A stretch of 35,530 nucleotides of DNA, taken from contig CAYZLT010000002.1 of assembly GCA_964479175.1 (NCBI GenBank), positions 12,255-47,784 of the forward strand, written 5' to 3'. This stretch comes from an uncultured Solibacteraceae bacterium (lineage in GTDB: Bacteria; Acidobacteriota; Vicinamibacteria; Vicinamibacterales; SCN-69-37). Made by a program: the position numbers and the translations under genes. Position 1 is the first letter of the stretch; each line of letters opens with the position of its first letter. The notes beneath the pieces are model-generated. The model had not been told where the DNA came from. It saw nothing but the letters and a program-made list of their open reading frames with translations, and did not search any database. Of this stretch, positions 16,246-31,167 are shown one piece after another.

Positions 16246-17129
16246 CGAGACATGGTCCACGATGCGACAAGGTCCAGGGTCCAGGGTTCCTGCTCGGAGT
16301 CCTCGTTCTGAGTGCGATGGTGCTGAGTGCGGCGACGCAACCCGCGCCGAAAAGGATCATCAGTCTCATCCCGGCGGTCACCGAAATGTTGTTTGCAATT
16401 GGTGCGGGTGACCAGGTCGTCGGGGTCTCCAGCTTCGATACATACCCGGCGGAGGTGGAGACACGCCAGAAAGTCGGGGGACTCTTTGATCCGAACTTCG
16501 AGCGCATCCTGTCGCTTCGACCGGACATGGTCATCACCTACGGGTCACAGGATGAACTGACCACACGTCTCAAGACCGCGAACATCCCATGGTTCTCCTA
16601 TCGCCACGGCGGGCTGGCCGACATCACGTCCACCATTCGCGCGCTGGGCGTACGCACAGGGCATGCGGCGCAGGCACAGACGTTGGCCTCGCAGATTGAA
16701 ACGGAGCTGGCGGCGGTGAAAGCACGGTCTGCAGGGAAAGCACGACCGCGGACGCTTGTCGTCTTTGGACGCGAAGAAGGGTCGCTGCGCGGATTGTTTG
16801 TCAGCGGCGGCGTCGGCTTCCTGCATGACCTGCTGGAATTGGCCGGCGGCGAAAACGTGATGGCCGACGTCGCACGTGAGGGACTCCAGTTGTCGAGTGA
16901 ACAGCTGCTCGGCCGCGCCCCCGACGTGGTGATCGAATTGCGCAATGGACAGGCATGGTCGCCCGATCGGCGCGCGCGCGAGCTGGGCGTGTGGCGGGAC
17001 GCACGCATTCCCGCATCCAGAAACGGACGAGTCCATCTCCTGGCCGACCCGTCCCTGGTCATCCCCGGCCCGCGCGTGGGCCAGGCCGCACGCACGATCG
17101 CCGACGTCATATTTTTGCAAGCCCGCTGA
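16242..17129 (+). CDS. btuF: Cobalamin-binding periplasmic protein (helical-backbone metal receptor)
   Basis: PKRIISLIPAVTEMLFAIGAGDQVVGVS…DTYP, PNFERILSLRPD, PGPR. Confidence 0.88.
   Translation: MTRHGPRCDKVQGPGFLLGVLVLSAMVLSAATQPAPKRIISLIPAVTEMLFAIGAGDQVVGVSSFDTYPAEVETRQKVGGLFDPNFERILSLRPDMVITYGSQDELTTRLKTANIPWFSYRHGGLADITSTIRALGVRTGHAAQAQTLASQIETELAAVKARSAGKARPRTLVVFGREEGSLRGLFVSGGVGFLHDLLELAGGENVMADVAREGLQLSSEQLLGRAPDVVIELRNGQAWSPDRRARELGVWRDARIPASRNGRVHLLADPSLVIPGPRVGQAARTIADVIFLQAR
16254..16290 (+). repeat. 37-bp GGTCCA[CG] heptamer-based dispersed repeat, copy inside the 5' end of btuF
   Basis: GGTCCACGATGCGACAAGGTCCAGGGTCCAGGGTTCC; 32/37 identical to 31168-31204. Confidence 0.8.
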
Positions 17130-17221
17130 TACCGCGAACACCTCTGCCTTCGTCCGTCCACTACGAGTCAGCATAGTTTTTCCCATAACGAAAGAACTTC
17201 GGAAAGTCCCCGAACAAAGGA

Positions 17222-17251
17222 TTGACGGGGGCGAGTGGCCCCGCTTACAGT
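17222..17251 (+). promoter_or_regulatory. Sigma70-type promoter of the large TonB receptor
   Basis: TTGACG - 18 nt - TACAGT, about 85 nt upstream of the ATG. Confidence 0.55.
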
Positions 17252-17334
17252 GCCGAATTCCTGTAAATACGGTACGAAGTTGTCCGACAACGGGCGCTTG
17301 GTCGTTCGGCAATCCAGACTTAGGGGGAGAAGTA

Positions 17335-20300
17335 ATGAAGCAAGGACTCGTCCGGCTCGGCTCGCTCGTCGCCATCATGCTGATGGTCACGACGCTGGCC
17401 TACGGTCAGGGCAGTGTCAGCTCGACACTGACCGGCACCGTACTCGACACCTCCGGCGGCGCCATTCCCGGTGCCACGGTCGTCGCAAAAAACAGCGGTA
17501 CCGGCGTCACGACGGAAGCCATCTCGTCGTCGCAGGGCACGTTCACCATTCCCGCGTTGCTCCCCGGCACCTATTCAGTGACGGTGTCACTGACGGGATT
17601 CAAAACGGCCGTCTATAACGGCGTCATGCTCAACGCCGGTGTCCCGTCGGCGATCGCCGCGCGACTGGAAGTCGGCGGCATCACGGAAACGGTCATCGTC
17701 GAAGGCGCGACCGCGCTGGTCCAGACGGTGTCGTCGGCCGTGTCGTCGACGGTCAACACCAAACAGATTCAGAGTCTGCCGCTGACCTCCCGGTCCGTGA
17801 TCGACTTCGTCACGTTCCTGCCCGGCGTGCAGACGGCCGGCGGCAACCGCGGATCAGCCATCAACGGCCTCCCGCAGGCGACGATCAACATCACGCTCGA
17901 CGGGGTGAACATCCAGGACAACACGCTGCGCAGCACCGACGGGTTTTTCACCATCATCTCTCCGCGTCTTGACGCGATCGAAGAAGTCACGGTGTCCACG
18001 GCGGCCGGCGAATCAGCCGGTGGCGGCTCCGGTGCCGTGCAGATTCGGTTCACGACCCGCTCGGGCACCAATGCCTACACGGGCAGCCTGTACCACTACT
18101 ATCGCGACGACACGTGGAATGTGTTTGGGCAGAAGCTGAACCTGAACATGAACACGTGGTTCAACAATCGCAATGGCGTGGCCAAGCCCAAGCTTCTGCA
18201 GCATCAGCGTGGCGGCCGCCTCGGCGGTCCCATCGTCATCCCGGGTCTGTATGACGGACGCGGCAAAGCGTTTTTCTTCACCAACGTTGAACACTTCCTC
18301 CAGCCCTCGGAGGTCACGCGCACACGGACCATCTTCCATGAACGTGCCCGCGCGGGGTTCTATCGTTACGGCACCGCTGGCGCCCCGACGGAAGTCAACC
18401 TGCTCACACTCGCGGCTGCCAACGGCCAGTTGGCGACGATGGATCCGACGATTCAGAAATTGCTGGCGGATATTCGTCAGGCGACTTCCACAACGGGCAG
18501 CATCACCACCAATGCCAATCCGCAGCACGATACCTACGACTACAACGTGGCGGTGGAATCCCGCCGCTGGTTCCCGACGTACCGGCTCGACTACAACTTC
18601 ACGAACAACCACAGGTTCTCGACGATCCTGAACTGGCACTCGTTCAGTGACTTCCCGGATACCTTGAACGGTTTTGATCCCTCGTTCCCTGGCTTCCCGG
18701 TGTTCGGGTCGCAGTCCTCCAAGCGCCGGTCGTCGAGCAACTCGCTGCGTTCGACGTTCGGCCAAAACGTGGTCAACGAAGCGCGCATTGCGTTCCAGGG
18801 TTCGCCCGTTGAGTTCTTCAACGAACAGTTTGACCCGCAGATTTGGAACCAGCCGTTTGGCGGCCAGGGCGGCTTCCACCTCGCCCTGGGCAACGGGATC
18901 AACAACGCCGGCCCTGCCCCCAATGCGCAGTCGCGCAACGTCGATACCTGGCGGATCGAGAACACGGTGAGCTGGTTGAAGGGGTCGCACAGCTTCAGCT
19001 TTGGCGCGTCGTTTGACCGGGCCAACTCCTGGAACAAGTTCAAGACAACGGTGCCGACCGTCGGCTTCGCCATGTTGCCAACGGACCCCGCGATCGGCAT
19101 GTTCACGACGGCGAACTTCCCGGGCGCCTCGGCGGCGCAGTTGACCGCCGCGCAGAACATGTATGCGCTGCTGACGGGCCGTGTGAACAGCCTGGCAGGC
19201 ACGGCGCGCGTGGATTCGTCCACCGGCAAGTACGTGTTCAGCGGTCTTGGCCTCGAGGAGTCCCGGCTCGACGAGTACGGGGTGTTCGCGCAGGACAGCT
19301 GGCGCGTGCGTTCGAACCTGAGCGTGAACATCGGTCTGCGCTGGGATGTGCAGGCGCCCTTCCGCGCCCTGAACAACTCCTACGCGACGGCCACGATCGA
19401 CAGCGTGTGGGGCCGGTCGGGCTATGCCGCGGGCTGCGACCTCTCCAACGCAACGCCTGAGACGTGCAACCTCTTCAAGCCGGGCCAGATGCCGGGCTCA
19501 CCGACGGTGTACGAACAGTGGAAGGCCGGGACGAAGGCGTACAACGTGGACTGGAACAACGTGGCGCCGAGCATTGGCTTCAACTGGACGCCCGATCGCC
19601 TTGATGGATTCCTGGGCACGCTGATGGGTGCCTCAGGCGACTTCGCCATCCGCGGCGGATTCGCGCGGTCTTTCCAGCGCCCGGCGATGGGCGATCTCCG
19701 CGCACGGTTCTCCACCAACCCCGGTCTCGCGATCGCGGTGGCCAAGAACCAGTCGCTCGGCAACCTCGGCGCGAACCCGCTGCTGTTCCGCGATTCGGCG
19801 AACATGACGCCTGCGACCTTCAACGACACGCCGGTGTTTCCAAACTCCGGTCTGGTCACCAACAGCGTCAACGCATTTGACCCGAATCTCCAGGTGCCGT
19901 ATGCCGACACCTGGACTCTGGGTGTGCAGCGCGGGATCACCAAGAACATGGCAGGTGAAGTCCGCTACGTGGGCACACGTGCCCGTCAGCAGTGGACCAA
20001 CTACAACTACAACGAGCTGAACATCATTGAAAACGGCATCCTCAATGAGTTCAAACTCGCGCAGGCGAACCTGCAGGCCAACGTGGCGGCCGGACTGTCG
20101 ACGCAAGGGTTCCGCTACCGCGGCCCTGGCACGGGCACCTCACCGCTGCCGATCTTCCTCGCGTACTTCAGCGGCGTGGCCGGGGCCAACGCGGGTGATG
20201 CGGCGCGGTACTCGTCGACGCTGTTCACGAATACGACGTTTCTGAACCCGCTGTCGCGACACAACCCGAACCCGTTCACGTTCGGCAATGCGCTCGACAA

Positions 20301-21222
20301 CGATGCCACCCGTCGCGCCAACGCGTTGGCGGCCGGCCTTCCGGCCAACTTCCTGCGCGCCAACCCGGACAAGCTGGGTGGCGCCGTGGTGGGCGGTCAT
20401 GGTGACTTCACCAACTTCAACTCGCTGCAGCTCGAGTTGCGCCGGCGTCTCGCCAACGGCGTGCAGTTCAACGCCAGCTACGTCTGGGGCGTCGGGGAAC
20501 AGTCGATTCGCTACTCGTTCCGCGTCCCGCGTCAGACGGCCAAGCGCACCGGCATCGCCGGTGGCGCCGAGGTCACCCACGCGTTCAAGCTCAACTACAT
20601 GCTGGAACTGCCCTTCGGTCGCGGCAAGCGGTTCATAAGCGATGCGGGGTCCATCCTCGATCGTGTGGTCGGTGGCTGGCAGCTGCACGGCAACGTCCGC
20701 GTCCAGAGTGGTGCGTGGGTCGAGTTCGGCAACGTCAACATGGTCGGCTTCGACGAGAAGGAGCTGCGCAAGATGTTCAAGCTCCGTATCAACGAAAACC
20801 AGCGGGTCTTCATGCTGCCGCAGGCGATCATTGACGAGACCATCAAGGCGTTCAGCACCAGCCCGACGACGGCCAGCGGCTACGGCGCGCTCGGCGCACC
20901 GAGCGGCAAATATTTCGCGCCCGCGATGGGAGCGAACTGCCTGGAAACCATCTCCGCGAACTACGGCGATTGCGGCACGCGGGAACTCTCGGTCCGCGGT
21001 CCGGCCTTCAAGGAAGTGGACATCAGCATCATGAAGCTCCTGCCCATCGTGAAGCGGGTCCAGGCGGAGTTCCGCGTTGAGATGTTAAACGCGTTCAACA
21101 CGGTCAACTACGTCCCCGTGACGGGCGTTGGCAGCACCACGGGAGCGGGCTTCGAAATCGGCGGCCTGACCGGCACCAACACTGCACGCGTCGTCCAGCT
21201 CATCACTCGTATCAGCTGGTAA
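17335..21222 (+). CDS. Large Oar-type TonB-dependent receptor with carboxypeptidase-regulatory-like N-domain (acidobacterial type)
   Basis: SD GGGGGAG before ATG 17335; signal peptide; LTGTVLDTSGGAIPGATV; LDAIEEVTV; TRSGTN; FAQDSWRV; APSIGFNW; FRVEMLNAFN; C-terminal RVVQLITRISW. Confidence 0.92.
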   Translation: MKQGLVRLGSLVAIMLMVTTLAYGQGSVSSTLTGTVLDTSGGAIPGATVVAKNSGTGVTTEAISSSQGTFTIPALLPGTYSVTVSLTGFKTAVYNGVMLNAGVPSAIAARLEVGGITETVIVEGATALVQTVSSAVSSTVNTKQIQSLPLTSRSVIDFVTFLPGVQTAGGNRGSAINGLPQATINITLDGVNIQDNTLRSTDGFFTIISPRLDAIEEVTVSTAAGESAGGGSGAVQIRFTTRSGTNAYTGSLYHYYRDDTWNVFGQKLNLNMNTWFNNRNGVAKPKLLQHQRGGRLGGPIVIPGLYDGRGKAFFFTNVEHFLQPSEVTRTRTIFHERARAGFYRYGTAGAPTEVNLLTLAAANGQLATMDPTIQKLLADIRQATSTTGSITTNANPQHDTYDYNVAVESRRWFPTYRLDYNFTNNHRFSTILNWHSFSDFPDTLNGFDPSFPGFPVFGSQSSKRRSSSNSLRSTFGQNVVNEARIAFQGSPVEFFNEQFDPQIWNQPFGGQGGFHLALGNGINNAGPAPNAQSRNVDTWRIENTVSWLKGSHSFSFGASFDRANSWNKFKTTVPTVGFAMLPTDPAIGMFTTANFPGASAAQLTAAQNMYALLTGRVNSLAGTARVDSSTGKYVFSGLGLEESRLDEYGVFAQDSWRVRSNLSVNIGLRWDVQAPFRALNNSYATATIDSVWGRSGYAAGCDLSNATPETCNLFKPGQMPGSPTVYEQWKAGTKAYNVDWNNVAPSIGFNWTPDRLDGFLGTLMGASGDFAIRGGFARSFQRPAMGDLRARFSTNPGLAIAVAKNQSLGNLGANPLLFRDSANMTPATFNDTPVFPNSGLVTNSVNAFDPNLQVPYADTWTLGVQRGITKNMAGEVRYVGTRARQQWTNYNYNELNIIENGILNEFKLAQANLQANVAAGLSTQGFRYRGPGTGTSPLPIFLAYFSGVAGANAGDAARYSSTLFTNTTFLNPLSRHNPNPFTFGNALDNDATRRANALAAGLPANFLRANPDKLGGAVVGGHGDFTNFNSLQLELRRRLANGVQFNASYVWGVGEQSIRYSFRVPRQTAKRTGIAGGAEVTHAFKLNYMLELPFGRGKRFISDAGSILDRVVGGWQLHGNVRVQSGAWVEFGNVNMVGFDEKELRKMFKLRINENQRVFMLPQAIIDETIKAFSTSPTTASGYGALGAPSGKYFAPAMGANCLETISANYGDCGTRELSVRGPAFKEVDISIMKLLPIVKRVQAEFRVEMLNAFNTVNYVPVTGVGSTTGAGFEIGGLTGTNTARVVQLITRISW

Positions 21223-21245
21223 GCGATAGCGTTTCGTGCATACTG

Positions 21246-21284
21246 GCCCGGGTGGGGACATGTCCCCCCCGGGCTTCTTTTTTT
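21246..21284 (+). terminator. Rho-independent terminator
   Basis: GCCCGGG-T-GGGGACATGTCCCC-CCCGGGC followed by TTCTTTTTTT. Confidence 0.85.
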
Positions 21285-21301
21285 CCACTGGGCCTTTCAC
21301 C

Positions 21302-23077
21302 ATGCGTTCCCTCTTGCTCGCCCTGATTGCGGCCGTGCTCGGCGCGACGTCGTACGCCCAGAGCCCGCAGTTTGTGCTGTCGTCGCGTGACCGCGCGAAC
21401 CTGCTGGCGGTCGACTTCCTCGCCACAGGTCAGGACGGCTCCCCCTTCGACACGTTGGCGCCGGCAGACGTGACCGTCCGGCTAGGGGGCAAGGCACGTC
21501 GGGTTGTGGCGCTCGACTTTGTGCGTGCGCAGGCTCACGACGTCACCTCGGTCGCTGCCCCGTTTGGCGACAACGTCGCACCACTGGCCCCACGATCGCT
21601 GATTCTGATGGTGGACGCCGACACGATCAGACCCGGCCGAACCGCGGCCGTCCGCGACGCCGCACAGCAGTTGCTGGCAGGCCTCGCGCCGCGGGACCGT
21701 GTGGCCCTGGTCACGGTGCCTTTTGGCGGGCTCGCCGTCGACCTCACGACCGATCACACACGAGTGCTCCAGGCGTTGAACGGACTCACCGCGCAGAGCT
21801 CCCGCGGCGAAACAGTGGGCGACGCGCAGTGCCGCACGCTGACCACACTCGCCGCGATGAGCGACATGCTCCTCAGACTCAGCGCGGTGGAGGATCCGGT
21901 GACGGTCGTCCTCTTTTCGAGCCACCAAGCTGGCCCTCAAAACATGATTCGCATGACCGGTGAGGCCTCAGCCGGCGGCGCGTGTGAGCTGCGTGCGTCC
22001 CACTTCACCGATCTGGGACACGCAGCCGCCCGCGCGCGCGCACACTTCTATGTCGTGCATGCCGACCTTGAACAGCGCAGCCGCGGCCTCGATGGCCTTG
22101 AGCACATCTCCGGCGTGACTGGCGGGCCCCTTCTCCACCTGTCGACTGACGACGGCCGCGCGGCCGTGGGACGAATCCTCACGGAAACGTCCGGGCACTA
22201 CGTGGCGCGCATCACACGAGAGCCGTCTGACACTGCGGACCAGGTCCAGAACATCAGCGTCTCGACCTCGCGGTCCGGTGTCACGATCTGGCGGACACCG
22301 CAGTTCCTGGTGACACGCGCGAGTGCCACATCCACCACAGCGCCAACGACCCCGACCACTGTCATCGACTTGATGCGTCAGCCACGGATCGTCAGCGACC
22401 TCCCGTTGCGGGTCACGGCACATGCCTTTCGCGATGAGGACCAGGGCAAGGTCAGACTTGCGGTGACGCTGGACTCGTCGGATCCTGCTGCCGTGCTCTC
22501 GAGCGCGATGATTGGCGTCTTCGATGAACACGGTCAGTTAGTGACTGGCCTCGAAATGTCCTCTGAGGTCCTGGCCCGGCGACCGGTTGTGGCCGCGCTC
22601 TCGGTGCCGACCGGCACCTATCGACTGCGCGCGGCCGCGCTGGAATCATCTGGACGTGGCGGCACGGCCGACCAGACGATCGACGCCGCGCTCACACAGA
22701 TCGGCCCCCTCTACGCCAGCGCCGTGATGATCGGGCTATCGCGTGAGGGTGGATTTGTGCCCGCGCTGGAATTCACCTCGGAACCCACCGCGTTCGCGAT
22801 GCTCGAACTCTACGGCGCGGTGTCGCCGGTGCCGCGCGTGGTCTTCGAAATCGCCGCCACCACCAACGGCCCGGCGGTGTTGACGATGCCGGGGCTGGTG
22901 GAGGCATCGCCAGTCGCGACCCGCGCGGTGGCGACGGCGGTGCTCCCGATTTCCCAATTGGCGCCGGGCGACTATGTGGTCAGGGTCACGGTGACCCCTG
23001 AGGGACGCGCCGGCGGACGCCTGCTCCGGACGTTACGCAAGATCAGCATGCAGCCGATCAAGGAACCGGCCCACTGA
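21302..23077 (+). CDS. Secreted VWA-domain protein (VWFA-related acidobacterial type) with C-terminal Ig-like domains
   Basis: Signal peptide; LLAVDFLA…DGSP; RSLILMVD; PRDRVALV; DLTTDH; ISGVTGG; LAPGDYVVRV. Confidence 0.75.
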   Translation: MRSLLLALIAAVLGATSYAQSPQFVLSSRDRANLLAVDFLATGQDGSPFDTLAPADVTVRLGGKARRVVALDFVRAQAHDVTSVAAPFGDNVAPLAPRSLILMVDADTIRPGRTAAVRDAAQQLLAGLAPRDRVALVTVPFGGLAVDLTTDHTRVLQALNGLTAQSSRGETVGDAQCRTLTTLAAMSDMLLRLSAVEDPVTVVLFSSHQAGPQNMIRMTGEASAGGACELRASHFTDLGHAAARARAHFYVVHADLEQRSRGLDGLEHISGVTGGPLLHLSTDDGRAAVGRILTETSGHYVARITREPSDTADQVQNISVSTSRSGVTIWRTPQFLVTRASATSTTAPTTPTTVIDLMRQPRIVSDLPLRVTAHAFRDEDQGKVRLAVTLDSSDPAAVLSSAMIGVFDEHGQLVTGLEMSSEVLARRPVVAALSVPTGTYRLRAAALESSGRGGTADQTIDAALTQIGPLYASAVMIGLSREGGFVPALEFTSEPTAFAMLELYGAVSPVPRVVFEIAATTNGPAVLTMPGLVEASPVATRAVATAVLPISQLAPGDYVVRVTVTPEGRAGGRLLRTLRKISMQPIKEPAH

Positions 23078-23812
23078 CGCGGGACCGGCCAGTCTGAACT
23101 GAATCAGGTGGTCGTGCGGACGATCGCCGACCCCAATGGACACGCCGCGACCTGTCAGCGTGGCAAACGCATCTTCGTCGGTCCGATCGTCGCCCAGGTA
23201 GACGACGCCGACGCCTGAGGTCGGCCCGATGTCCACCGCCGACCGAATCCACTCCACGGCCTTGCCCTTGTGCCATTCAGCGGCCGGCAGCAACTCCAGT
23301 GCCTGCGCGCCGGGAAGCACCCTCAGAAGATCGGCATCGAGGGCCGGCTGCGCCACCTCGACAAACTGTCCGAGCGCCGTCCCCGCCGCGTCGGGCGAGA
23401 CCTTCCGGACGTGACAGGTCAACGCGTACGTCTTGTCTTCAAGGACGACATCTGGACACCAGGCGAGCGCGAGTCTGGCTCGCGCGAGGATGTCCGCGAT
23501 CACCGGCGCGACACGCGCCAGCGCCGGGTGCAGGAACCCGCCCGTGGGTCCGCTGATTTCCAGGCCGTGCAGTCCTCCCACATACGGGGCCACGTCCGCC
23601 GTCCGCGCGCGCACATCGTCAATACGCCTGCCACTCACCACGGCCAGCGTGGTGCGGGGATGTTCGCCGACAAGGCGCAAGGTGTCGCGCACCTCTGGTG
23701 ACATGACGGCCGTACCGGGCGTCAACGCGAGTTCGGAGAGTGTGCCGTCAAAGTCGGTGACCAGGAGCAGATGGCGCTCACCCAGCCATTGCCGCACCTC
23801 ACGTGCGACCAC
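23033..23812 (-). CDS. otsB: Trehalose-6-phosphate phosphatase (HAD IIB)
   Basis: DFDGTL, VVSGR, GLHGLE, EDK…HVR, HKGKAV, YLGDDRTDEDAF. Start uncertain (GTG 23812 chosen). Confidence 0.92.
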   Translation of the reverse strand: MVAREVRQWLGERHLLLVTDFDGTLSELALTPGTAVMSPEVRDTLRLVGEHPRTTLAVVSGRRIDDVRARTADVAPYVGGLHGLEISGPTGGFLHPALARVAPVIADILARARLALAWCPDVVLEDKTYALTCHVRKVSPDAAGTALGQFVEVAQPALDADLLRVLPGAQALELLPAAEWHKGKAVEWIRSAVDIGPTSGVGVVYLGDDRTDEDAFATLTGRGVSIGVGDRPHDHLIQFRLAGPASVGRFLDRLHADLA

Positions 23813-23834
23813 ATCCGACGTGTGATAGACCCCG

Positions 23835-26546
23835 CTAGTCAGAGAAAAACCCCGAGCCCTTTCCGCGTTCGAGCTGATGCAGAATGTCCGAGGCCCACGC
23901 GAGCACATCGCGACCGGCCACACGCCTCCGCAAGGCCTGCATCCGTCGGCGCACTTCCCACTCCGGCATCTCGACCGCACGCAGCACCGCGTCGGTGAAT
24001 CCGCGTTCGTCGTACGGATTGATGATGAGGGCCTCCTCCAATTCCTGCGCGGCGCCCGCCAACTCGCTGAGAATCAACACGCCGTCGAAGTCGTCCCGCG
24101 CCGCCACAAATTCCTTGGCGACCAGGTTCATCCCGTCGTGGAGGGAGGACACGATACAGAAATCCGCCAGCCGGTACAACGCCACCAGATCGGGCATGGC
24201 AAACGACTGCTTGAGAAACCGGATCGGGCCATCGTCCGGGCCTCGACCGTGCCGAGTGTTGATGTCGGCGATCAGTCGATCGATCTCAATGGAGATCTCG
24301 GCGTAGCCCTGTACTTCCTCGCGCGAGGGCACCCCAATCTGCACAAACACGAATCGAGCGGCCAGATCGGGGCGCGCGTCGAGCGCCCGCCCGATCGCAG
24401 CCATACGCTCAGGGATGCCCTTCGTGTAGTCGAGGCGGTCCACACCGATCCCGACGACCTTGCCCTCCAGCCCCCAGTCGCCGGCCAGACGGGTCATCCG
24501 CGCCGGCAACTCGTCGTCGGCCAGGATCGTCGTGATGCGATCGAAGTCGGCGCCGATCGGGATCGCCGCGACGCGCACCGGACGGTCGCCAAAGTACACC
24601 GTTTCGTTAGAGACGCTGGCTCCGAGTTCGTCCGTCACCGCCTGCAGGAAGTTGCGTTCGTCGCGCGGCAACTGGAACGCCACGAGGTCATTGGCCAACA
24701 TGCCGCGAATGATCTCAACGCGCCACGGACAGATGCGCAGACGATCGGCGTCAGGCCACGGAATGTGCCAGAAGATGGCCGTCCGGAGCCGGGGACGGAG
24801 TTCGCGCAGGTGCTGCCCCACCAACGCGAGGTGATAGTCGTTCAGGAACACGGACGCCTCGGTTGGCGCCTCGGCGGCGGCGGCTTCCGCGAAGCGGCGA
24901 TTGACCTGTTGGTAGGTCTCCCACTCCTCGGCCTTGAACACCGGCCGCACGTGCGCCTGATGACACAACGGCCACAACGCGCCATTGGCAAACCCTGCGT
25001 AGTAGCCGGCCTCCTCTTCCGGGGTCAACCACAGTCGACGAAGTCGATACGACGGCGATTCCGGCGGGACGCCGACTGAATCACGTTCATCGCTGACGGC
25101 CCGATCGGCCGTGCCCGCACCGTGGGCGATCCAGACGCCCCCTCGCTCGCGCATCAGGGCGTCCAGGGCCACCGAGACGCCTCCGGGCGTCGCACGCACC
25201 TTGATCGATCCGTCCGGCGCGTACTCGTGCAGATACGGCTCCCGATTGGACACCACCACAAGACCACCGGCCGACCGGCCCACCTCTCCGGCGGAGACGA
25301 GGGCCGACTTGAACAGAATCGGCCCGATCAATTCGTGCATGGCGATGATCGCCACCATCAACGTCTCGAATCGACCGCCCCACTCCGGGAACTCGGTCGA
25401 CACCAGGATCGTGAGGCTCAACGTGACTCCGGCCTGCGACACCAACCCACGCCACAAGAGCGGCGTCGAGGCCGGCTCGCCGGTCACCAGGCGTGATCCG
25501 ATCATCGATCCTGCATACAGGAGCACCGTGCGGACGGCCACGATCACCAGCGCGATCGCACCGATCGTCGCGAGCGCGTCCACCTGCAGCGACGCACCAG
25601 CCGCGGTGAAGAACAGAATCAGGATCGGTGTGGATCCCCGTTCGATGGCATCGCGCAACACATCGCCTTCGGAGGCCGCGAGATTCCCAACGACCAGACC
25701 TGCGGAGATCGCCGCGATGAGTGCGCCAAAGTGCCACAACTGCCCGACCCCTGTGATGAGGGCACACACGCCGACCAGGACCAGCGTCACTTCACGACCG
25801 ACCCATCGCAGATACAACGCAAACATGGCGCCGACGATCGCGCCGAACGCCACCGACCCCGGAAGTTCCCACAGCAGTGACGCCACAAAGGCCGGAGCAT
25901 CGGCCGATTGCGCGAACACCGCGCGGGCGCCCTCCATCGACAACGCGAACAGCAGAATCAGCGCCAGATCGGCGAGGACCACCACGGCGAGTGTCAATTC
26001 GGCCAGCGATCCACGCGCCCGTGTCTCGGCAATCACGGCCGTCGTGACCGTCGGCGAAAAACCCACCAGCACCGAGGTGACGATGGCGACAATGGCGACA
26101 CGGGGCCAGCCGGCGACGTCCGGAGCAATCGGCAGCCACGGCCACACGACAAACAGCAAGGCGAACAGCACGACGTACGCCAGCAAAATGGTCACGCCGG
26201 CCAGCGTGACGATCGAACGCATGCGCGGCCGCAGGCGGGCGATGTTCAGCTCAAGACCGGCCGTGAACGCGATGATGGCAATCGCCAGACCGTTGATGAG
26301 TTGAAGGTCGCGGGCCATCGGCCGCGTGATGATGTTCAGCACGTAGGGGCCGCAGATCAGGCCAAAGACGAGATACCCCGTGAGCCTGGGCAGGTGCGCA
26401 GACTCGAACAACCATCCCACGATCGAAGCGGCAATCAATGTCACGCCGAGCGCAAGGGCGGTCGCCGAGGCCGTGCCATCGCCCAGGTGGGACACCAGTA
26501 CCCACGCCAGCGCCATGGTGATCGTGAGCGCAGCCAGACGACGCAC
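23835..26546 (-). CDS. otsA: Fusion protein: N-terminal cation/H+ antiporter (CPA) domain plus C-terminal trehalose-6-phosphate synthase (GT20)
   Basis: About aa 1-425 are polytopic with LPRLTGYL…GP, AGLEL, SPTVTTAVIAE…LAD, FFTAAGA and QAGV. From aa 429: VSNREP, NGALWPLCH, DYHL, HIPWP, DRLDYTKG, PSR, DGMNLVAKEF, LSELAGAA, NPYD. One uninterrupted 903-aa ORF. Confidence 0.92.
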   Translation of the reverse strand: MRRLAALTITMALAWVLVSHLGDGTASATALALGVTLIAASIVGWLFESAHLPRLTGYLVFGLICGPYVLNIITRPMARDLQLINGLAIAIIAFTAGLELNIARLRPRMRSIVTLAGVTILLAYVVLFALLFVVWPWLPIAPDVAGWPRVAIVAIVTSVLVGFSPTVTTAVIAETRARGSLAELTLAVVVLADLALILLFALSMEGARAVFAQSADAPAFVASLLWELPGSVAFGAIVGAMFALYLRWVGREVTLVLVGVCALITGVGQLWHFGALIAAISAGLVVGNLAASEGDVLRDAIERGSTPILILFFTAAGASLQVDALATIGAIALVIVAVRTVLLYAGSMIGSRLVTGEPASTPLLWRGLVSQAGVTLSLTILVSTEFPEWGGRFETLMVAIIAMHELIGPILFKSALVSAGEVGRSAGGLVVVSNREPYLHEYAPDGSIKVRATPGGVSVALDALMRERGGVWIAHGAGTADRAVSDERDSVGVPPESPSYRLRRLWLTPEEEAGYYAGFANGALWPLCHQAHVRPVFKAEEWETYQQVNRRFAEAAAAEAPTEASVFLNDYHLALVGQHLRELRPRLRTAIFWHIPWPDADRLRICPWRVEIIRGMLANDLVAFQLPRDERNFLQAVTDELGASVSNETVYFGDRPVRVAAIPIGADFDRITTILADDELPARMTRLAGDWGLEGKVVGIGVDRLDYTKGIPERMAAIGRALDARPDLAARFVFVQIGVPSREEVQGYAEISIEIDRLIADINTRHGRGPDDGPIRFLKQSFAMPDLVALYRLADFCIVSSLHDGMNLVAKEFVAARDDFDGVLILSELAGAAQELEEALIINPYDERGFTDAVLRAVEMPEWEVRRRMQALRRRVAGRDVLAWASDILHQLERGKGSGFFSD

Positions 26547-27725
26547 CTAGCGCGGCTCCCTTCGCCAAAGGGGCAACGCCACCACCGCAAACACTTCAAA
26601 CACCGCCGTGCCGATTGCCACCGCCCACAACAGGGCTTCACCGGACGCCGCGGGAAGGATCTGCCGGAAGTTGAGCGCAAACGCGATCCCAATCACCCCG
26701 GGCGACATCAGATACGCGGCCATGTCACTGGGCCGGACATCCCCGACGATCCGAGCGGAGATCCAGCCGCCGGCCACCTTGCCCGCGAGCCGAAACAGCA
26801 GAAACGGCACCAGCAACCACGCGCCCGCGGCCGACGGTGTCCACAACGCACCGGCCGTGACCAGCAACAGCACCACGAGCGGGTGTTGCAACTTGCCGAG
26901 GTCGTCCTGCACGATGCGGTCGGCGCGGCCAGGGACCATCGTCCACAGCAGTCCGGCCACCAGTCCCACCGACAACGGCGACACGCGCATGTAGGCGGCG
27001 GCGCCGCCCGCCAGCGCGAGCGTGCCAAGCACATACACGCCTCGCTCAGCGACGGACTTCGCGCGTTCAAAGAGCAGCCACCCGATCAGGCCGGTGATGA
27101 GGCCGGCGCCGACGGGTATGAGAGCAATCCACCAGCGATCGGCACCCGTGCCTGTGGCCACGGTGAAGATGCCGGCGGCGACGATGATGGGCAGGATGTC
27201 GTCGAGATCGGCCACACGCGTCGCCACGGCTGCGGCGGGGTCGGCATCCGGATCCGCGGAGGTCGCCGACGAGGCCGACGCGCACAGCCCAAGGGCCAAC
27301 GCGATGATGACCGCCGAGGCATCCAGCGGCAGACCAGTCGACACCACCAGGTACAACGTGGCCCCGGCGACTGCCGCGATCGTCACCAGGCTTTCCAGGC
27401 TGGCCGCCAGCAGCAGCCGGCCGGCGGACGGCACCTCGCGGCCAAAGGCGATGCCGACAAACACGCCGACCAGCGCCAGCGCGAGCGTGACGCTCAGGTC
27501 GAGCAGCGTGCGCATATCGCCGGTGATCAAATTGAGACCGTGGGGCCCGAGCAGCACCCCGAGTGGGAGGAAGACCACCGCCGGTGTGAGCGACGGGGCA
27601 AGGCCCAGCGCCGACCGTGTGCGCAACAGGGAAAACAGCCAGCGCAGAGGCGAAGGTGGCGGTGCACCGAGTCGGCGGTCAATGGGGTCCAGACCGCCCA
27701 GCTCCCGTCGTCGCTGATCACTCAT
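26547..27725 (-). CDS. Divergent CPA-family (Na+/H+ exchanger-like) membrane protein
   Basis: Polytopic, with FLPLGVLLGPHGLNL, ASASS…VADLDD, SPLSVGLVAG and RLAGK. Its stop abuts the GTG of the fusion gene. Confidence 0.75.
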   Translation of the reverse strand: MSDQRRRELGGLDPIDRRLGAPPPSPLRWLFSLLRTRSALGLAPSLTPAVVFLPLGVLLGPHGLNLITGDMRTLLDLSVTLALALVGVFVGIAFGREVPSAGRLLLAASLESLVTIAAVAGATLYLVVSTGLPLDASAVIIALALGLCASASSATSADPDADPAAAVATRVADLDDILPIIVAAGIFTVATGTGADRWWIALIPVGAGLITGLIGWLLFERAKSVAERGVYVLGTLALAGGAAAYMRVSPLSVGLVAGLLWTMVPGRADRIVQDDLGKLQHPLVVLLLVTAGALWTPSAAGAWLLVPFLLFRLAGKVAGGWISARIVGDVRPSDMAAYLMSPGVIGIAFALNFRQILPAASGEALLWAVAIGTAVFEVFAVVALPLWRREPR

Positions 27726-28489
27726 TGGACCCGGAGTGCCTCCACGGCGGCGAGTAACGCAGGCACCCGCGTAATGGCCACGCCGAGATCATCGGGTAAC
27801 GTCATGCCGACCAGCCGACCGTCAAGGGTGTAGATGAAGGCCCCGGCGTTCAGTTGCGGATCGCCACCAACCGACAGCAGCGGCTGTGTCCACCTGGGGT
27901 CGTCGAAGGAATCGACGCGGCCGATAAACAGCGGACGGGCAGCCGGTCCCCCGCGCGCACCTTCAAACACGGCCACGTAGCCCGGGCCGCCGATCCCCTG
28001 GGCGACCGAGCCCAGTCCCATAAACGGGGCGTCTGGCACACGAACGAGCACCAGCCGGCGGTCGGGATCCTCGGTGGCGACCTCGATGCCTGCCGCGGGC
28101 ACGACTCTGAAGCCTGATGGGAGATGGGCGATCGCCAGGTTGATATCGATCCGAAGGGCAGCAACAATCCGCCGATCGGTGGGCGCGGGCGCGACGGGCG
28201 CCGCGCCGCGGCGCGTCGGCGCCGCCGGTGGTGGAATCCGTTCGAGGGTGATCACGGTCAGGGCGGGCTGCACACGCGTCGAGAGATCGCCCATGATGAG
28301 CGCCAGTTCCTCAAACGTGGCTCGCGCCGCCAACCGTTCGATGGGCCCGGCCAGCGGTGACACCACCGCGCGATCGGGTGTCGGATATTGAAATTGCGCA
28401 AGGACGAGCAACACCGCCACGGCGACCATGATCACCAGCAGCAGCAACCGAGTCTCACGGCCACGTCCAGACACGGATGGCGTACTCAT
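27722..28489 (-). CDS. Membrane-anchored hypothetical protein with degenerate trypsin-like fold
   Basis: N-terminal TM, Pro/Ala linker, DPDRRLVLVRV and NAGAFIYTLDGRLVGM, which echo HtrA-type D..DLALL and NSGGPL.NL.G.VIG without the catalytic Ser. Confidence 0.6.
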   Translation of the reverse strand: MSTPSVSGRGRETRLLLLVIMVAVAVLLVLAQFQYPTPDRAVVSPLAGPIERLAARATFEELALIMGDLSTRVQPALTVITLERIPPPAAPTRRGAAPVAPAPTDRRIVAALRIDINLAIAHLPSGFRVVPAAGIEVATEDPDRRLVLVRVPDAPFMGLGSVAQGIGGPGYVAVFEGARGGPAARPLFIGRVDSFDDPRWTQPLLSVGGDPQLNAGAFIYTLDGRLVGMTLPDDLGVAITRVPALLAAVEALRVQ

Positions 28490-28505
28490 CAGGGGCAAGG
28501 TCCTC

Positions 28506-29660
28506 TCATGCGGGCGCGGTCGCCCGCAGGCGTTTCACGACGGCCGCGAACTTCTCAATCGCGTAGTCGATATCGTCGTCGGTCGTAAACCGCCCGAGAC
28601 CAAACCGCACGGTCGCGCCCGGGACGGGGTCGGCACCGCGCAGGGCCGTGAGCACATGCGAGGGCGTGGCGGACGCCGAGCTGCACGCGGACCCCGACGA
28701 GACGGCGATGTCCCCAATGCCGATGATGAGGGACTCACCGTCCACGCCCTCAAATGCGATGTGCAGGTTGTGCGGAAGGCGATGTTCGATCGACCCGTTC
28801 ACCACCACGCCGCCACATTTCTGCCGCAGCCCCTCAAGCAGGCGATCGCGCATCCGCGCCAGTCGCGGCGTTTCGACGGCCATCTCAAGCTTGTCGAGGT
28901 GACAGGCGTACCCCAGACCCACGATGCCGGGCACGTTCAACGTGCCCGAGCGGAATCCTCGTTCCTGTCCGCCGCCCACAATCAGCGGGGCCAGTTCGGT
29001 GCGCTTGCGAACAAACAAGGCGCCACACCCCTTGGGACCGTACATCTTGTGCGCGGTCAGCGACAACAAATCGACTGTGACCTCCGCGAGGTTGACAGGG
29101 ATCTTGCCGACCGCCTGCGCGGCATCGGTGTGCACAAGTGCACCCTTCGCGTGGGCGATCGCGACGATCTCGGCCATCGGCTGCAACACGCCAATCTCGT
29201 TGTTGGCCGACATGATGCTCACCAGCGCTGTCTGTTCGGTCACCACGCCGGCAAGCGTCTCGAGCGAGATGCGACCGTCACGATTCACCGGCAGCACGGT
29301 CACGGACCAGCCGGACTTCTCGAGTGACTTGCAGACTTCGAGCACACACTTGTGCTCGATGGCCGAACACACGATGTGGCGTCGGGTGTCGGGCGATAAC
29401 GCGGCCACGCCCTTGATGGCCCAGTTGTTGGACTCGGTGGCGCCGCTCGTGAAAATCACTTCACGCGCCGAGGCCCCGATCAGTGCGGCGACGCGGCGAC
29501 GCGATTCTTCGACCGCCTCCTGCGCCTTCCAGCCCCAGGCATGGCTCGACGAGGCCGGATTCCCGAAGTTTTCCGTGAAATACGGCAGCATCACCTCAAG
29601 CACCCTTGGATCAACCGGGGTCGTAGCGTGATAATCGAGATACACGGGCGGTCGAGACAT
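28506..29660 (-). CDS. iscS: Cysteine desulfurase, group I (IscS/NifS)
   Basis: YLDYHATTP, FGNPAS, FTSGATESNN, DAAQAVGK, AHKMYGPKG, RSGT, SSGSACSS. True start is ATG 29660. Confidence 0.95.
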   Translation of the reverse strand: MSRPPVYLDYHATTPVDPRVLEVMLPYFTENFGNPASSSHAWGWKAQEAVEESRRRVAALIGASAREVIFTSGATESNNWAIKGVAALSPDTRRHIVCSAIEHKCVLEVCKSLEKSGWSVTVLPVNRDGRISLETLAGVVTEQTALVSIMSANNEIGVLQPMAEIVAIAHAKGALVHTDAAQAVGKIPVNLAEVTVDLLSLTAHKMYGPKGCGALFVRKRTELAPLIVGGGQERGFRSGTLNVPGIVGLGYACHLDKLEMAVETPRLARMRDRLLEGLRQKCGGVVVNGSIEHRLPHNLHIAFEGVDGESLIIGIGDIAVSSGSACSSASATPSHVLTALRGADPVPGATVRFGLGRFTTDDDIDYAIEKFAAVVKRLRATAPA

Positions 29661-29668
29661 GCCTGTTA

Positions 29669-29674
29669 ATTCTA
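29669..29674 (-). promoter_or_regulatory. -10 box of the iscS operon (leaderless or near-leaderless)
   Basis: TAGAAT 8 nt before the iscS ATG, in a 33-bp AT-rich divergent gap. Confidence 0.55.
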
Positions 29675-29693
29675 TTAGATTGAGGGGCTTCAG

Positions 29694-30551
29694 ATGCCGC
29701 GTACTCGCATCGGTCAGATCGCGTTTGTGCTGGCGCTGGCGTTGCTCGTGCCGACACCAGCGGCGGCCCAGCAGACATCCCCGCCACCCGCCGGCACGAT
29801 CTACGAGATGGTGCTCAAAGACGGCACCCGCATCTTCGGCACCGTCGAGCAGGAGACGCCTGATCGGGTCGTCCTCCGGACGACGGGCGGCGCCAGAATG
29901 GATGTGGCCCGGAGTGAGATCGTCACCTTGAGCCTGGCGGAGGGACGCCTGCACTCCGGTCAATTCCGGAGACGGGATCCGAACCCGACCCGCCTGTTTT
30001 TCGGACCCACCGGCCGGTCCATTAAAAAGGGCGAAGGCTACATCGGCGTTTACGAACTGTTTCTGCCCTTCGTGCAGGTCGGTCTCACGGACCGGCTGTC
30101 GATTGGCGGCGGCACGCCGCTGGTGTTTGGCGGAGGCGACCGGCCTTTCTGGATCACCCCAAAGTTCCAGGTCCAAGAGAACACGCGCATCAGCACCTCC
30201 GTGGGTGCGCTCCACTTCCTGAATGTGGAAGACGTCGATCTTGGCATTGCATATGTCGCCTCCACCATCGGCACCACAGACGATGCCGTAACGGTTGGGG
30301 TCGGATGGTCATACGTCAACACCAACAAGAATGACGAGGGCGCGGTGGTGGCGATGTTCGGCGGTGAAAAACGCGTCAGCCCACGGATCAAACTCATCAG
30401 TGAGAACTACGTGTTTAACGGCGGAGGAGTCCTCTCAGGCGGTGTGCGGTTCCTGGGAGAGTCCCTGTCGGCGGACCTCGGGCTGTTCATTCCGCTCGGT
30501 GCGGGTGACGCGATCGCACTGCCGATCGCGAACTTCGTCTGGAAGTTCTAG
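29694..30551 (+). CDS. Exported hypothetical protein: small beta module plus probable outer-membrane beta-barrel
   Basis: Signal peptide (…PAAA/Q), LKDGTRIFG module, amphipathic strands and C-terminal NFVWKF beta-signal; SD GAGGGG. Confidence 0.7.
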   Translation: MPRTRIGQIAFVLALALLVPTPAAAQQTSPPPAGTIYEMVLKDGTRIFGTVEQETPDRVVLRTTGGARMDVARSEIVTLSLAEGRLHSGQFRRRDPNPTRLFFGPTGRSIKKGEGYIGVYELFLPFVQVGLTDRLSIGGGTPLVFGGGDRPFWITPKFQVQENTRISTSVGALHFLNVEDVDLGIAYVASTIGTTDDAVTVGVGWSYVNTNKNDEGAVVAMFGGEKRVSPRIKLISENYVFNGGGVLSGGVRFLGESLSADLGLFIPLGAGDAIALPIANFVWKF

Positions 30552-30554
30552 AAT
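30549..30554 (+). promoter_or_regulatory. -10 box overlapping the upstream stop codon (leaderless lipoprotein gene)
   Basis: TAGAAT 7 nt before ATG 30562; no SD. Confidence 0.55.
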
Positions 30555-30561
30555 GCCCCGC

Positions 30562-31167
30562 ATGCCCAAATCCCTCATCGCCGCCGTCGTGGTGATCTCG
30601 CTCGCTGGTGTGGCCTGCAGCGCAGAAGCGCCTGCGCCGGTCCAGAGCCAGGCCGCCCAGTTCCTGTCAGCCATCGCCGCCATGTGTGGCAATGCGTACG
30701 GCGGACGGATTGCGGCCAATGAGCCCGCAACGCCGAACGATCCCTTCGTCGGCCAGGCACTCGTCATGCACGTGCGCACCTGTGAGCCTGACCAGGAGCG
30801 GGTGCTCGTGCCGTTTCACGTCGGCGAGGATCGATCCCGCACCTGGGTGCTGACGATCCACGGGGACCGCATCAGGCTCAAACACGACCACCGGCATCAG
30901 GACGGTACTGAAGACGAACTCACGCAATACGGCGGTGACAGCACCAGCGTGGGCACCGCGACCCGTCAAGAATTTCCCGTGGATCAGTTTTCGATCGATC
31001 TCTTTACGCGCACCAATCGCACGGTGTCCAACACGAACACCTGGGCGATGGAAGTGCACCCAGGCAAAATGTTCGCCTATGAGCTCTCACGACCGGGACG
31101 ACTGTTCCGCGTGGAATTTGACCTGACGACCACGGTCCCGGTTCCGCCGGCGCCGTGGGGACATTAG
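30562..31167 (+). CDS. Hypothetical lipoprotein
   Basis: MPKSLIAAVVVISLAGVA-C lipobox; globular domain with PFHVGEDRSRTW, LKHDHRHQDG and TQYGG. Confidence 0.75.
   Translation: MPKSLIAAVVVISLAGVACSAEAPAPVQSQAAQFLSAIAAMCGNAYGGRIAANEPATPNDPFVGQALVMHVRTCEPDQERVLVPFHVGEDRSRTWVLTIHGDRIRLKHDHRHQDGTEDELTQYGGDSTSVGTATRQEFPVDQFSIDLFTRTNRTVSNTNTWAMEVHPGKMFAYELSRPGRLFRVEFDLTTTVPVPPAPWGH

Follow-up and report, generated by a model that had tools for sequence, protein, structure and literature searches.

A cation/proton antiporter-type membrane domain fused to trehalose-6-phosphate synthase in Vicinamibacterales, with a second, predicted CPA-fold protein encoded directly upstream

The trehalose-6-phosphate synthase OtsA (PDB 5jij and 5jio; 1gz5 and 1uqu from Escherichia coli) is a GT-B fold enzyme that is either soluble or fused to the phosphatase OtsB/TPP, and bifunctional OtsA-OtsB (TPS-TPP) proteins are the common known fusion of the GT20 family. 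Among the cation/proton antiporters (CPA), the dimeric KefC and KefB proteins (8bxg) consist of a CPA membrane domain, a short linker and a cytoplasmic nucleotide-binding domain of the Rossmann type. The gene described here lies in a 35,530-nucleotide stretch of DNA (the window) from an uncultured Solibacteraceae bacterium of the order Vicinamibacterales, phylum Acidobacteriota (assembly GCA_964479175.1, contig CAYZLT010000002.1, positions 12,255 to 47,784), and encodes a protein of 903 residues that combines features of both. It resembles OtsA in fold, motif blocks and the neighbouring otsB gene, but carries a polytopic membrane domain of 425 residues at its N terminus, and the phosphatase is a separate gene downstream. 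With the Kef proteins it shares the order of membrane domain, short linker and Rossmann-type cytoplasmic domain.

Both domains were recognised within the single open reading frame (ORF). Pfam family PF00999 (Na_H_Exchanger) matched residues 38-388 (E 2e-19, 70.1 bits, cut-off 26.2) and PF00982 (Glyco_transf_20) residues 429-893 (E 6e-108, 362 bits, cut-off 32.5), the latter over model positions 3-472 of 473. The linker between the membrane and synthase domains is about eight residues long, the junction reads AGEVGRSAGG/LVVVSNREP, and G428 and L429 fall at nt 25263 and 25262. Linker length was identical in 20 of 21 rows sampled from an alignment of 121 fused proteins, the remaining row being one residue shorter. 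Stand-alone CPA orthologues terminate 2-35 residues past the same AGEVG motif, so that the synthase is joined at the extreme end of the membrane module. The gene starts with GTG directly after the TAG stop of its upstream neighbour, named UP here, and close relatives have an ATG and the sequence MRRL at the same position. An earlier note on this DNA had described an in-frame CPA-OtsA fusion of 903 residues with a very short linker at this junction, intact SNR, DYH, HIP, RLDYTKG, PSR and DGMNLVAKE motifs and an otsB gene following, and it proved right in each detail that was checked. Its interpretation needed more revision: the fusion is genuine and conserved and its GT20 domain looks intact, but the divergent nature of the CPA subfamily, the probable CPA-fold partner and the altered residues at the putative ion site of most fused relatives had not been noticed. 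Its proposal that ion flux and solute synthesis are physically coupled, in one direction or the other, is a hypothesis.

The architecture is widespread among relatives. A search of 5.8 billion protein clusters returned 7997 scoring relatives, and the best 120, which were examined, were 870-912 residues long, shared 60-94% identity with the window's protein and carried both Pfam domains in every case. Where these were named, the name was trehalose-6-phosphate synthase, from metagenome-assembled genomes (MAGs) of Vicinamibacterales or Acidobacteriota. One of them (P0086) bears the automatic Joint Genome Institute (JGI) name 'trehalose-6-phosphate synthase/Kef-type K+ transport system membrane component KefB', so both halves have already been met by annotation pipelines. 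In a sample of 401 genomes from the phylum, a match over both halves was found in at least six, all six from the order of the window, among the best 150 of 223 matches, in which the fused ones ranked highest. In a second sample, of 101 Vicinamibacterales genomes, an uninterrupted fused match was present in 21, some of them single-contig genomes, and a further genome (G461) had the fusion in two pieces with a TGA; including G461, the fused genomes span nine family codes. The fusion was also found in four named genome records, all Vicinamibacterales-type MAGs. The earlier note had considered that relatives might always encode separate genes. Many are fused, and unfused orthologues of both halves coexist with them: the 101-genome sample contained an unfused OtsA of the same lineage in 16 genomes (59-63% identity) and a stand-alone CPA orthologue in 22 (45-57% identity).

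Comparison with four close relatives gave dN/dS values of 0.08-0.19 in the membrane part and 0.04-0.085 in the synthase part, which places both under purifying selection. An artefact, whether a chimeric assembly, an indel joining two genes or read-through by the gene caller, might be suspected given that the genome is a fragmented MAG of 607 contigs and that some family representatives have frameshifted GT20 tails. The same in-frame junction in all of the best 120 relatives, drawn from several sources, the uninterrupted copies in 21 order genomes and in the four named MAGs, and 903 codons free of stops with selection on both halves make such an artefact exceedingly improbable. Assembly chimerism is effectively excluded, and we regard the architecture as real with near certainty. 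The frameshifted tails belong to three representatives of 50% clusters (P0124, P0125 and P0126), in which Arg/Ala-rich nonsense begins about 100 residues into the GT20 domain; they are probably frameshift errors or pseudogenes of the source assemblies.

The synthase half was most similar, among solved structures, to OtsA of Mycobacterium thermoresistibile (5jij; phmmer E 1.2e-88, 36-37% identity), with which its GT20 motifs align identically. The predicted model matched the GT-B fold of 5jio (Foldseek E 1.5e-31, TMt 0.91, root-mean-square deviation 2.5 over 476 columns), and the OtsA structures matched by the full-length model had TMt values of 0.88-0.93. Ten motif blocks were checked in the alignment of 121 fused proteins. 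Positions in the SNREP, PGG, WPLCH, NDYH, WHIPWP, DRLDYTKG, PSR and HDGMNLVAKE blocks were unchanged in 116-121 of the 121 proteins and catalytic-block residues in 120-121, the sole exception being E743, the last residue of VPSRE, which was kept in 44. From work on E. coli OtsA we take these residues to have substrate-binding and catalytic roles. The OtsA equivalog model TIGR02400 fitted best of the stand-alone synthase models, ahead of GgpS (303.8 bits) and the E. coli-type PRK10117 (224.1 bits), with a score (423.8 bits) that does not reach its cut-off of 564.85; the OtsA-OtsB model NF011071 scored 476.4 bits against a cut-off of 634, over model positions 3-464 only. The OtsA domain is very probably an active enzyme.

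The downstream ORF is of the otsB type (PF02358, E 1.3e-29 from ORF residue 75; TIGR00685, 128.7 bits, cut-off 68.05). The gene probably begins at an in-frame GTG (23812) that lies 22 nt beyond the stop of the fusion gene. OtsB is encoded as an ORF of its own, apart from the fusion polypeptide. Its adjacency supports a trehalose-6-phosphate pathway for the predicted synthase. The fusion gene gave the single GT20 match in the window's genome (95% complete), no other trehalose-6-phosphate synthase being detected there. Neither TreS nor TreY had a match over cut-off in the same genome, and this organism therefore probably makes trehalose by way of the fusion protein alone.

The membrane half is much more divergent. 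Searched against the PDB as a single sequence, the CPA domain gave no match at E ≤ 0.01, and a profile of 17 rows matched only the N-terminal part of MjNhaP1. A profile built from 99 members of the CPA subfamily matched NHE6 (9s0r, E 8.4e-13), NHE9 (E 5.7e-10) and, over its whole length, NapA (4bwz, E 1.7e-9), and also NHE1, PaNhaP, MjNhaP1 and SOS1; KefC was not among its matches at E ≤ 1, and no KTN/TrkA_N domain was found by Pfam in the fusion protein. By sequence, then, the domain belongs to a divergent, non-Kef-like subfamily. In the alignment with NHE6, the subfamily motif SPxV falls on the ATDP motif of the unwound helix, and Asp193 on the ion-binding Asp of the ND motif. The AlphaFold2 (AF2) model contains two discontinuous helices (147-160/165-175 and 361-367/374-385, with breaks at 161-164 and 368-373), as expected for a CPA fold. 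Foldseek did not classify this half, since the listed ranks for the full-length model held only OtsA structures.

The subfamily is large: an exhaustive profile search matched 6952 cluster representatives at E ≤ 1e-3, among which 1500 reached E ≤ 1e-30. Within the top 150, 104 were 400-500 residues long and seven carried the GT20 start motif or were cut inside it. Other C-terminal tails occur in the same subfamily, namely a voltage-gated-type Ion_trans channel domain in P0229 (1301 residues), AAA_16 in P0174 (1480 residues), and long helical tails that match no Pfam family in P0189 and P0235. Such variety is consistent with a membrane module that either takes its regulation from the cytoplasmic tail or signals to it.

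Stand-alone members share a signature of E99 (90 of 95), D193 (91 of 95), N288 (93 of 95), R339 (95 of 95) and Q371 (92 of 95), all five of which are retained in the window's protein. D193 alone maps by alignment to a known site residue, and the other four presumably line the same site. In the 121 fused proteins, which are close kin and whose residue counts do not represent independent events, position 99 was Q in 51, H in 32, E in 31 and R in 5; position 193 was E in 83, D in 33 and Q in 5, thus remaining acidic in 116; and position 371 was T in 73, K in 22, Q in 11 and M in 8. The changes travel in blocks, for example H/Q-E-T or E-D-K. For much of the fused clade the putative ion site thus gives the impression of remodelling and not of decay, and in the copy of the window it looks ancestral. 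We also considered whether R176, R178, R251, E252 and W365 might form a cytoplasmic docking surface peculiar to the fusion, but rejected the idea because stand-alone orthologues from this order conserve these residues as well.

The gene directly upstream, UP, matched no Pfam or NCBIfam family at E ≤ 0.01, and its profile found nothing in the PDB at E ≤ 10. It has 640 relatives at E ≤ 1e-3, the best 120 of which all lack a Pfam domain and, where named, are called 'hypothetical protein'. Nevertheless, several comparisons link it to the CPA domain of its neighbour. BLASTP aligned UP residues 44-128 with fusion residues 53-127 (E 4e-4), and hhalign extended the match to 273 columns (probability 96.4, E 1.3e-9), placing the ADLDD motif of UP over VLADL of the fusion protein; the AD of the latter is matched by DD in UP, the second Asp of which lies on Asp193. 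The AF2 model of UP (pLDDT 81.5, predicted template-modelling score (pTM) 0.80) gave CPA exchangers in all 42 listed Foldseek matches (ranks 1-50 of 61, E ≤ 0.001; TMq 0.52-0.66), with NapA (4bwz, E 1.5e-7) first, followed by SOS1, NHE3, NHE1, SLC9C1, KefC (rank 16) and NHA2. On these model comparisons, UP is a second protein of predicted CPA fold despite matching no sequence family.

Gene order and complex prediction point to a pairing of the two. The CPA match is immediately preceded by a UP match in all 22 fused loci and likewise in 19 of 22 stand-alone CPA loci (the exceptions being G416, G425 and G399). The boundary, where stop and start adjoin here, is a TGATG, ATGA or GTGA overlap in relatives, and in sequence terms such an overlap is the usual sign of translational coupling. 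Natural single chains also exist in which a UP-like N-terminal half precedes a domain of the CPA subfamily (P0135, hhalign probability 99.4, E 3.6e-21; P0138, probability 96.1). When the CPA domain and UP were each entered into a complex prediction as their own alignment, ipSAE was 0.68 (0.67-0.69 over runs that shared at least 85% of contacts, with partner pLDDT of at least 72), and the best control gave 0.00; of 80 solved complexes, 58 came up to that mark, as did 2 of 110 mismatched pairs. The predicted interface comprises fusion residues 26-45, 80-87, 252-269 and 303-310 and UP residues 66-81, 207-247 and 281-286. A heterodimer of UP and the CPA domain seems likely, and the apparent pairing of the UP family with this CPA subfamily suggests that heterodimeric CPA exchangers exist.

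Two loci among the fused ones (G411 and G421) have only partial UP matches (E ~1e-34) upstream of the fusion. Joining of UP to the fusion protein by read-through of the TAG was also considered, the two being in frame here with one TAG between them, and was rejected because relatives have other frames and overlaps. Frames of 1286-1349 residues in three relatives, which might be taken for triple fusions, were likewise discarded, their upstream part being Arg-rich nonsense with the real UP in another frame.

The reading that we tentatively prefer, at slightly less than even probability, is of a bifunctional membrane protein in which an exchanger protomer pairs with UP and an active OtsA gates the exchange by its state. 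The N-terminal half would be one protomer of a two-gene cation/proton exchanger of the CPA type and UP, translationally coupled upstream, the other and strongly diverged one, the two pairing by the helices at which CPA proteins usually dimerise. The C-terminal half would be an active OtsA held about eight residues from the last transmembrane helix, with otsB in the same operon, and would act like the cytoplasmic tails (KTN/RCK, cyclic-nucleotide-binding domain (CNBD) and others) of Kef, SLC9C1, SOS1 and NHE exchangers. Binding of glucose 6-phosphate (G6P) or nucleoside diphosphate-glucose (NDP-glucose), with closure of the GT-B domain, could be relayed to the exchanger through the short linker, tying exchange of K+ or Na+ for H+ to ongoing trehalose synthesis under osmotic or drying stress. 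The direction from tail to transport is favoured because of the analogy with those exchangers. Allosteric coupling of any kind between the two domains is evenly balanced between true and false, and the particular direction in which the synthase state gates exchange is, taken alone, somewhat unlikely; direct coupling of ion exchange to trehalose synthesis is plausible. The most far-reaching version, an obligate heterodimeric exchanger with a DD-type site in UP and exchange gated by the OtsA of its partner, swapping K+ or Na+ for trehalose under osmotic or desiccation stress, is doubtful, and to our knowledge no obligate heterodimeric CPA exchanger has been described.

Several observations weigh against this reading. 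Structure prediction of the full-length protein, a check proposed in the earlier note, gave a mean pLDDT of 84.9 and a pTM of 0.55, so that the relative placement of the domains is of low confidence and a confident docking of OtsA onto the membrane domain is not predicted. The CPA2 model TIGR00932 scored 45.1 bits, short of its cut-off of 238.3. Near-invariant residues of the putative ion site have changed in most fused proteins (E99 to Q, H or R in 88, D193 to E in 83, Q371 to T, K or M in 103), so exchanger function may be altered or lost across much of the fused clade. The ipSAE score may reflect likeness to known dimers and not binding by this pair, because CPA homodimers are among the solved structures, and the alignments entered were of our own making. 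In three fused loci from one clade (L005-L007; G375, G122 and G248) UP lacks the DD of ADLDD, with ELGV or EFGV where others have DLDD, and the partner may be degenerating in some lineages, these three and the two with partial UP matches. Lastly, the fusion is not obligatory, as orthologues of both halves occur unfused in the same order.

Information might instead flow from the membrane to the enzyme, with CPA domain and UP sensing an ion, pH or ionic strength as a 'transceptor' and activating the OtsA joined to it; trehalose would then be made in response to a rise in cytoplasmic K+ or Na+ or a shift in pH. We consider this unlikely, though somewhat less so than the obligate-heterodimer version above. 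It would account for the coordinated remodelling of the site in most fused relatives (E99 to Q/H, D193 to E, Q371 to T/K), which, at such low dN/dS, looks like a change of function and not decay. The SNR-motif residue R435, which in OtsA binds the phosphate of G6P, lies seven residues from the end of the linker, and a sole OtsA must be regulated somehow. Yet soluble OtsA of E. coli is reported to be directly stimulated by K+, which makes a sensor of 13 helices seem unnecessary; the window's copy retains the ancestral site residues of stand-alone, presumably transporting, members; and the low pTM tells against a confident interdomain contact here too. That same pTM is more at home with a passive tether, in which the fusion would anchor OtsA to the membrane, for example to make trehalose beside the bilayer that it protects, or fix a 1:1 ratio of the two products, with no allostery. 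Gene fusion between operon neighbours is common, both halves occur as separate genes in sister lineages, and in 11 of 12 stand-alone loci examined the module consists of UP, the CPA gene and a further upstream gene, UP2, with no OtsA. A polytopic anchor of 425 residues would be costly, however, and is under purifying selection, while a tether should tolerate variation in the length of its linker, which is very short and almost constant; the fusion has moreover been kept over nine family-level groups, or has arisen twice. A mere tether is thus unlikely, to about the same degree as the obligate heterodimer.

An internal start near the junction, yielding soluble OtsA in addition to the fusion, would be compatible with any of these readings but is improbable. 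The VVV of LVVVSNREP is written in GTG codons that are in frame, with a GGAGAG 22 nt ahead of them, and unfused orthologues begin 15-78 residues ahead of the same motif. That spacing exceeds a typical Shine-Dalgarno distance, however, the GGAGAG encodes the conserved AGE motif that is shared with stand-alone CPA genes, and an Rfam scan of 22500-31000 returned no families. Weighed against these alternatives, the exchanger gated by its synthase tail remains our preferred, if tentative, reading.

The history of the fusion was explored with trees of both halves. In a CPA tree of 42 rows (quick search), fused rows fell into two or three groups with stand-alone rows between them. Three apparently stand-alone rows inside fused clades were discounted, P0127 and P0122 being truncated fragments of fused genes and P0129 having a frameshifted tail. 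With the first two relabelled and the third left out, monophyly of the fused rows was not rejected by an approximately unbiased (AU) test (p 0.475; 20 rows against 21, the group having been named after inspection of the tree). In the GT20 tree (35 rows), fused rows formed two clades on starred branches, of 13 and 5 rows, and nine unfused rows were sister to the smaller one on an unstarred branch with support 93; the tree needs two changes, only one of which is forced by the starred branches. One old fusion followed by fission and two independent fusions are both possible on these trees.

The features of the locus are collected in Table 1. UP2 had no Pfam match at E ≤ 1. Its hydrophobic stretch reads, by eye, as a membrane anchor, and a language-model search placed it near Trypsin_2 clusters (score 0.96), a likeness to serine proteases to be taken as no more than a lead. 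By eye the GNSGG-like motif reads LNAGAF, so that UP2 may lack the catalytic Ser and could be a pseudo-protease. At some loci lacking the fusion, trehalose genes adjoin parts of the module: a UP2 homologue is divergent to an unfused otsA in G399 (L012), an otsB homologue is divergent to UP2-UP-CPA in G228 (L014), and in G425 (C1:394347-398373) UP lies about 1.5 kb from an unfused otsA, with the CPA gene on another contig. A suspected GT20 remnant 3' of the stand-alone CPA gene in G009 was rejected, the downstream gene being sirtuin-like. Genes resembling IscR, IscS and IscA, judged from N-terminal sequences, flank UP2-UP-CPA in five loci (L014, L015, L016, L019 and L024), which resembles conserved synteny without any obvious functional connection. 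The TonB-receptor-like ORF, 1425 residues as listed, probably starts too early.

Table 1. Coordinates of the fusion gene, its domains and the surrounding features, numbered from the first nucleotide of the window
Feature	Coordinates	Strand	Description and evidence
Fusion gene, CPA-type membrane domain + GT20 trehalose-6-phosphate synthase	23835..26546	-	903 aa; ORF listing, Pfam, NCBIfam
CPA-fold membrane domain	25272..26546	-	Residues 1-425; about 13-14 helices; PF00999, profile matches, AF2 secondary structure
Junction/linker EVGRSAGG	25263..25286	-	Residues 421-428; connects the AGE motif conserved at the C terminus of the CPA module with strand beta-1 of GT20 (LVVVSNREP)
GT20 (OtsA) domain	23868..25262	-	Residues 429-893; PF00982, phmmer, Foldseek, motifs
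otsB, trehalose-6-phosphate phosphatase	23033..23812	-	Listed ORF runs to 23980; PF02358, TIGR00685
UP, cryptic CPA-fold paralogue (predicted)	26547..27725	-	392 aa; hhalign, Foldseek, complex prediction, adjacency
UP2	27722..28498	-	258 aa; hydrophobic stretch near N terminus; overlaps start of UP by 4 nt
Class-V aminotransferase/cysteine desulfurase, IscS-like	28506-30215	-	PF00266, E 2.3e-82; adjoins the module
TonB-dependent-receptor-like outer-membrane protein, very large	16945-21222	+	PF25183, E 7.7e-107; CarboxypepD_reg, Plug
613-aa ORF convergent with otsB	21236-23077	+	Weak VWA_2 match, E 8.4e-4, below cut-off

Bacteria under osmotic stress begin by taking up K+, which is later displaced by compatible solutes, trehalose among them; in E. 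coli it is K+-glutamate that gives way to trehalose. How the ionic and solute phases are coordinated is poorly understood at the molecular level. A sole trehalose-phosphate synthase carried as the tail of an exchanger-like protein, in an abundant soil order, offers a testable case of coupling between the two phases. If a heterodimer with OtsA-gated exchange is borne out, it would explain mechanistically how trehalose comes to replace K+-glutamate, as has long been observed, and if the coupling is true it would bear on the survival of soil Acidobacteriota through drying and rewetting. The locus also exposes an unannotated family of cryptic proteins of predicted CPA fold, which appear to pair with a large CPA subfamily.

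Full-text searches of the literature turned up no description of a CPA-OtsA fusion, in line with the earlier note, which knew of no characterised example. Soil-preferring classes of Acidobacteriota have been described as enriched in trehalose biosynthesis (PMC11245096); the word 'antiporter' does not occur in the main text of that study, nor is a fusion mentioned in the passages that make this statement. What is new here is the domain architecture, CPA plus OtsA, together with a predicted heterodimeric CPA.

Compared with known systems, the protein thus stands apart from each of its nearest counterparts. Kef proteins end in a KTN domain, whereas here a whole enzyme takes that place, and their partner is KefF, whereas the predicted partner here is a second membrane protein. 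The motif ahead of the conserved Asp is of the form 'xD', as against what we take to be the DD or QD type. The best profile matches of the CPA subfamily are the CPA1-type exchangers (NHE6, NHE9, NHE1, PaNhaP and MjNhaP1) and NapA, but sequence similarity to these is very low, and stand-alone members have the E99, D193, N288, R339 and Q371 signature of their own. SLC9C1, with its voltage-sensing domain (VSD) and CNBD, and SOS1, both of them among the fold neighbours of UP, provide the precedent for CPA transport that is controlled by attached cytoplasmic domains. These are eukaryotic proteins whose tails are sensors, whereas the tail of the fusion protein is a metabolic enzyme, and if the coupling is true an enzyme would join the list of regulatory tails on CPA transporters.

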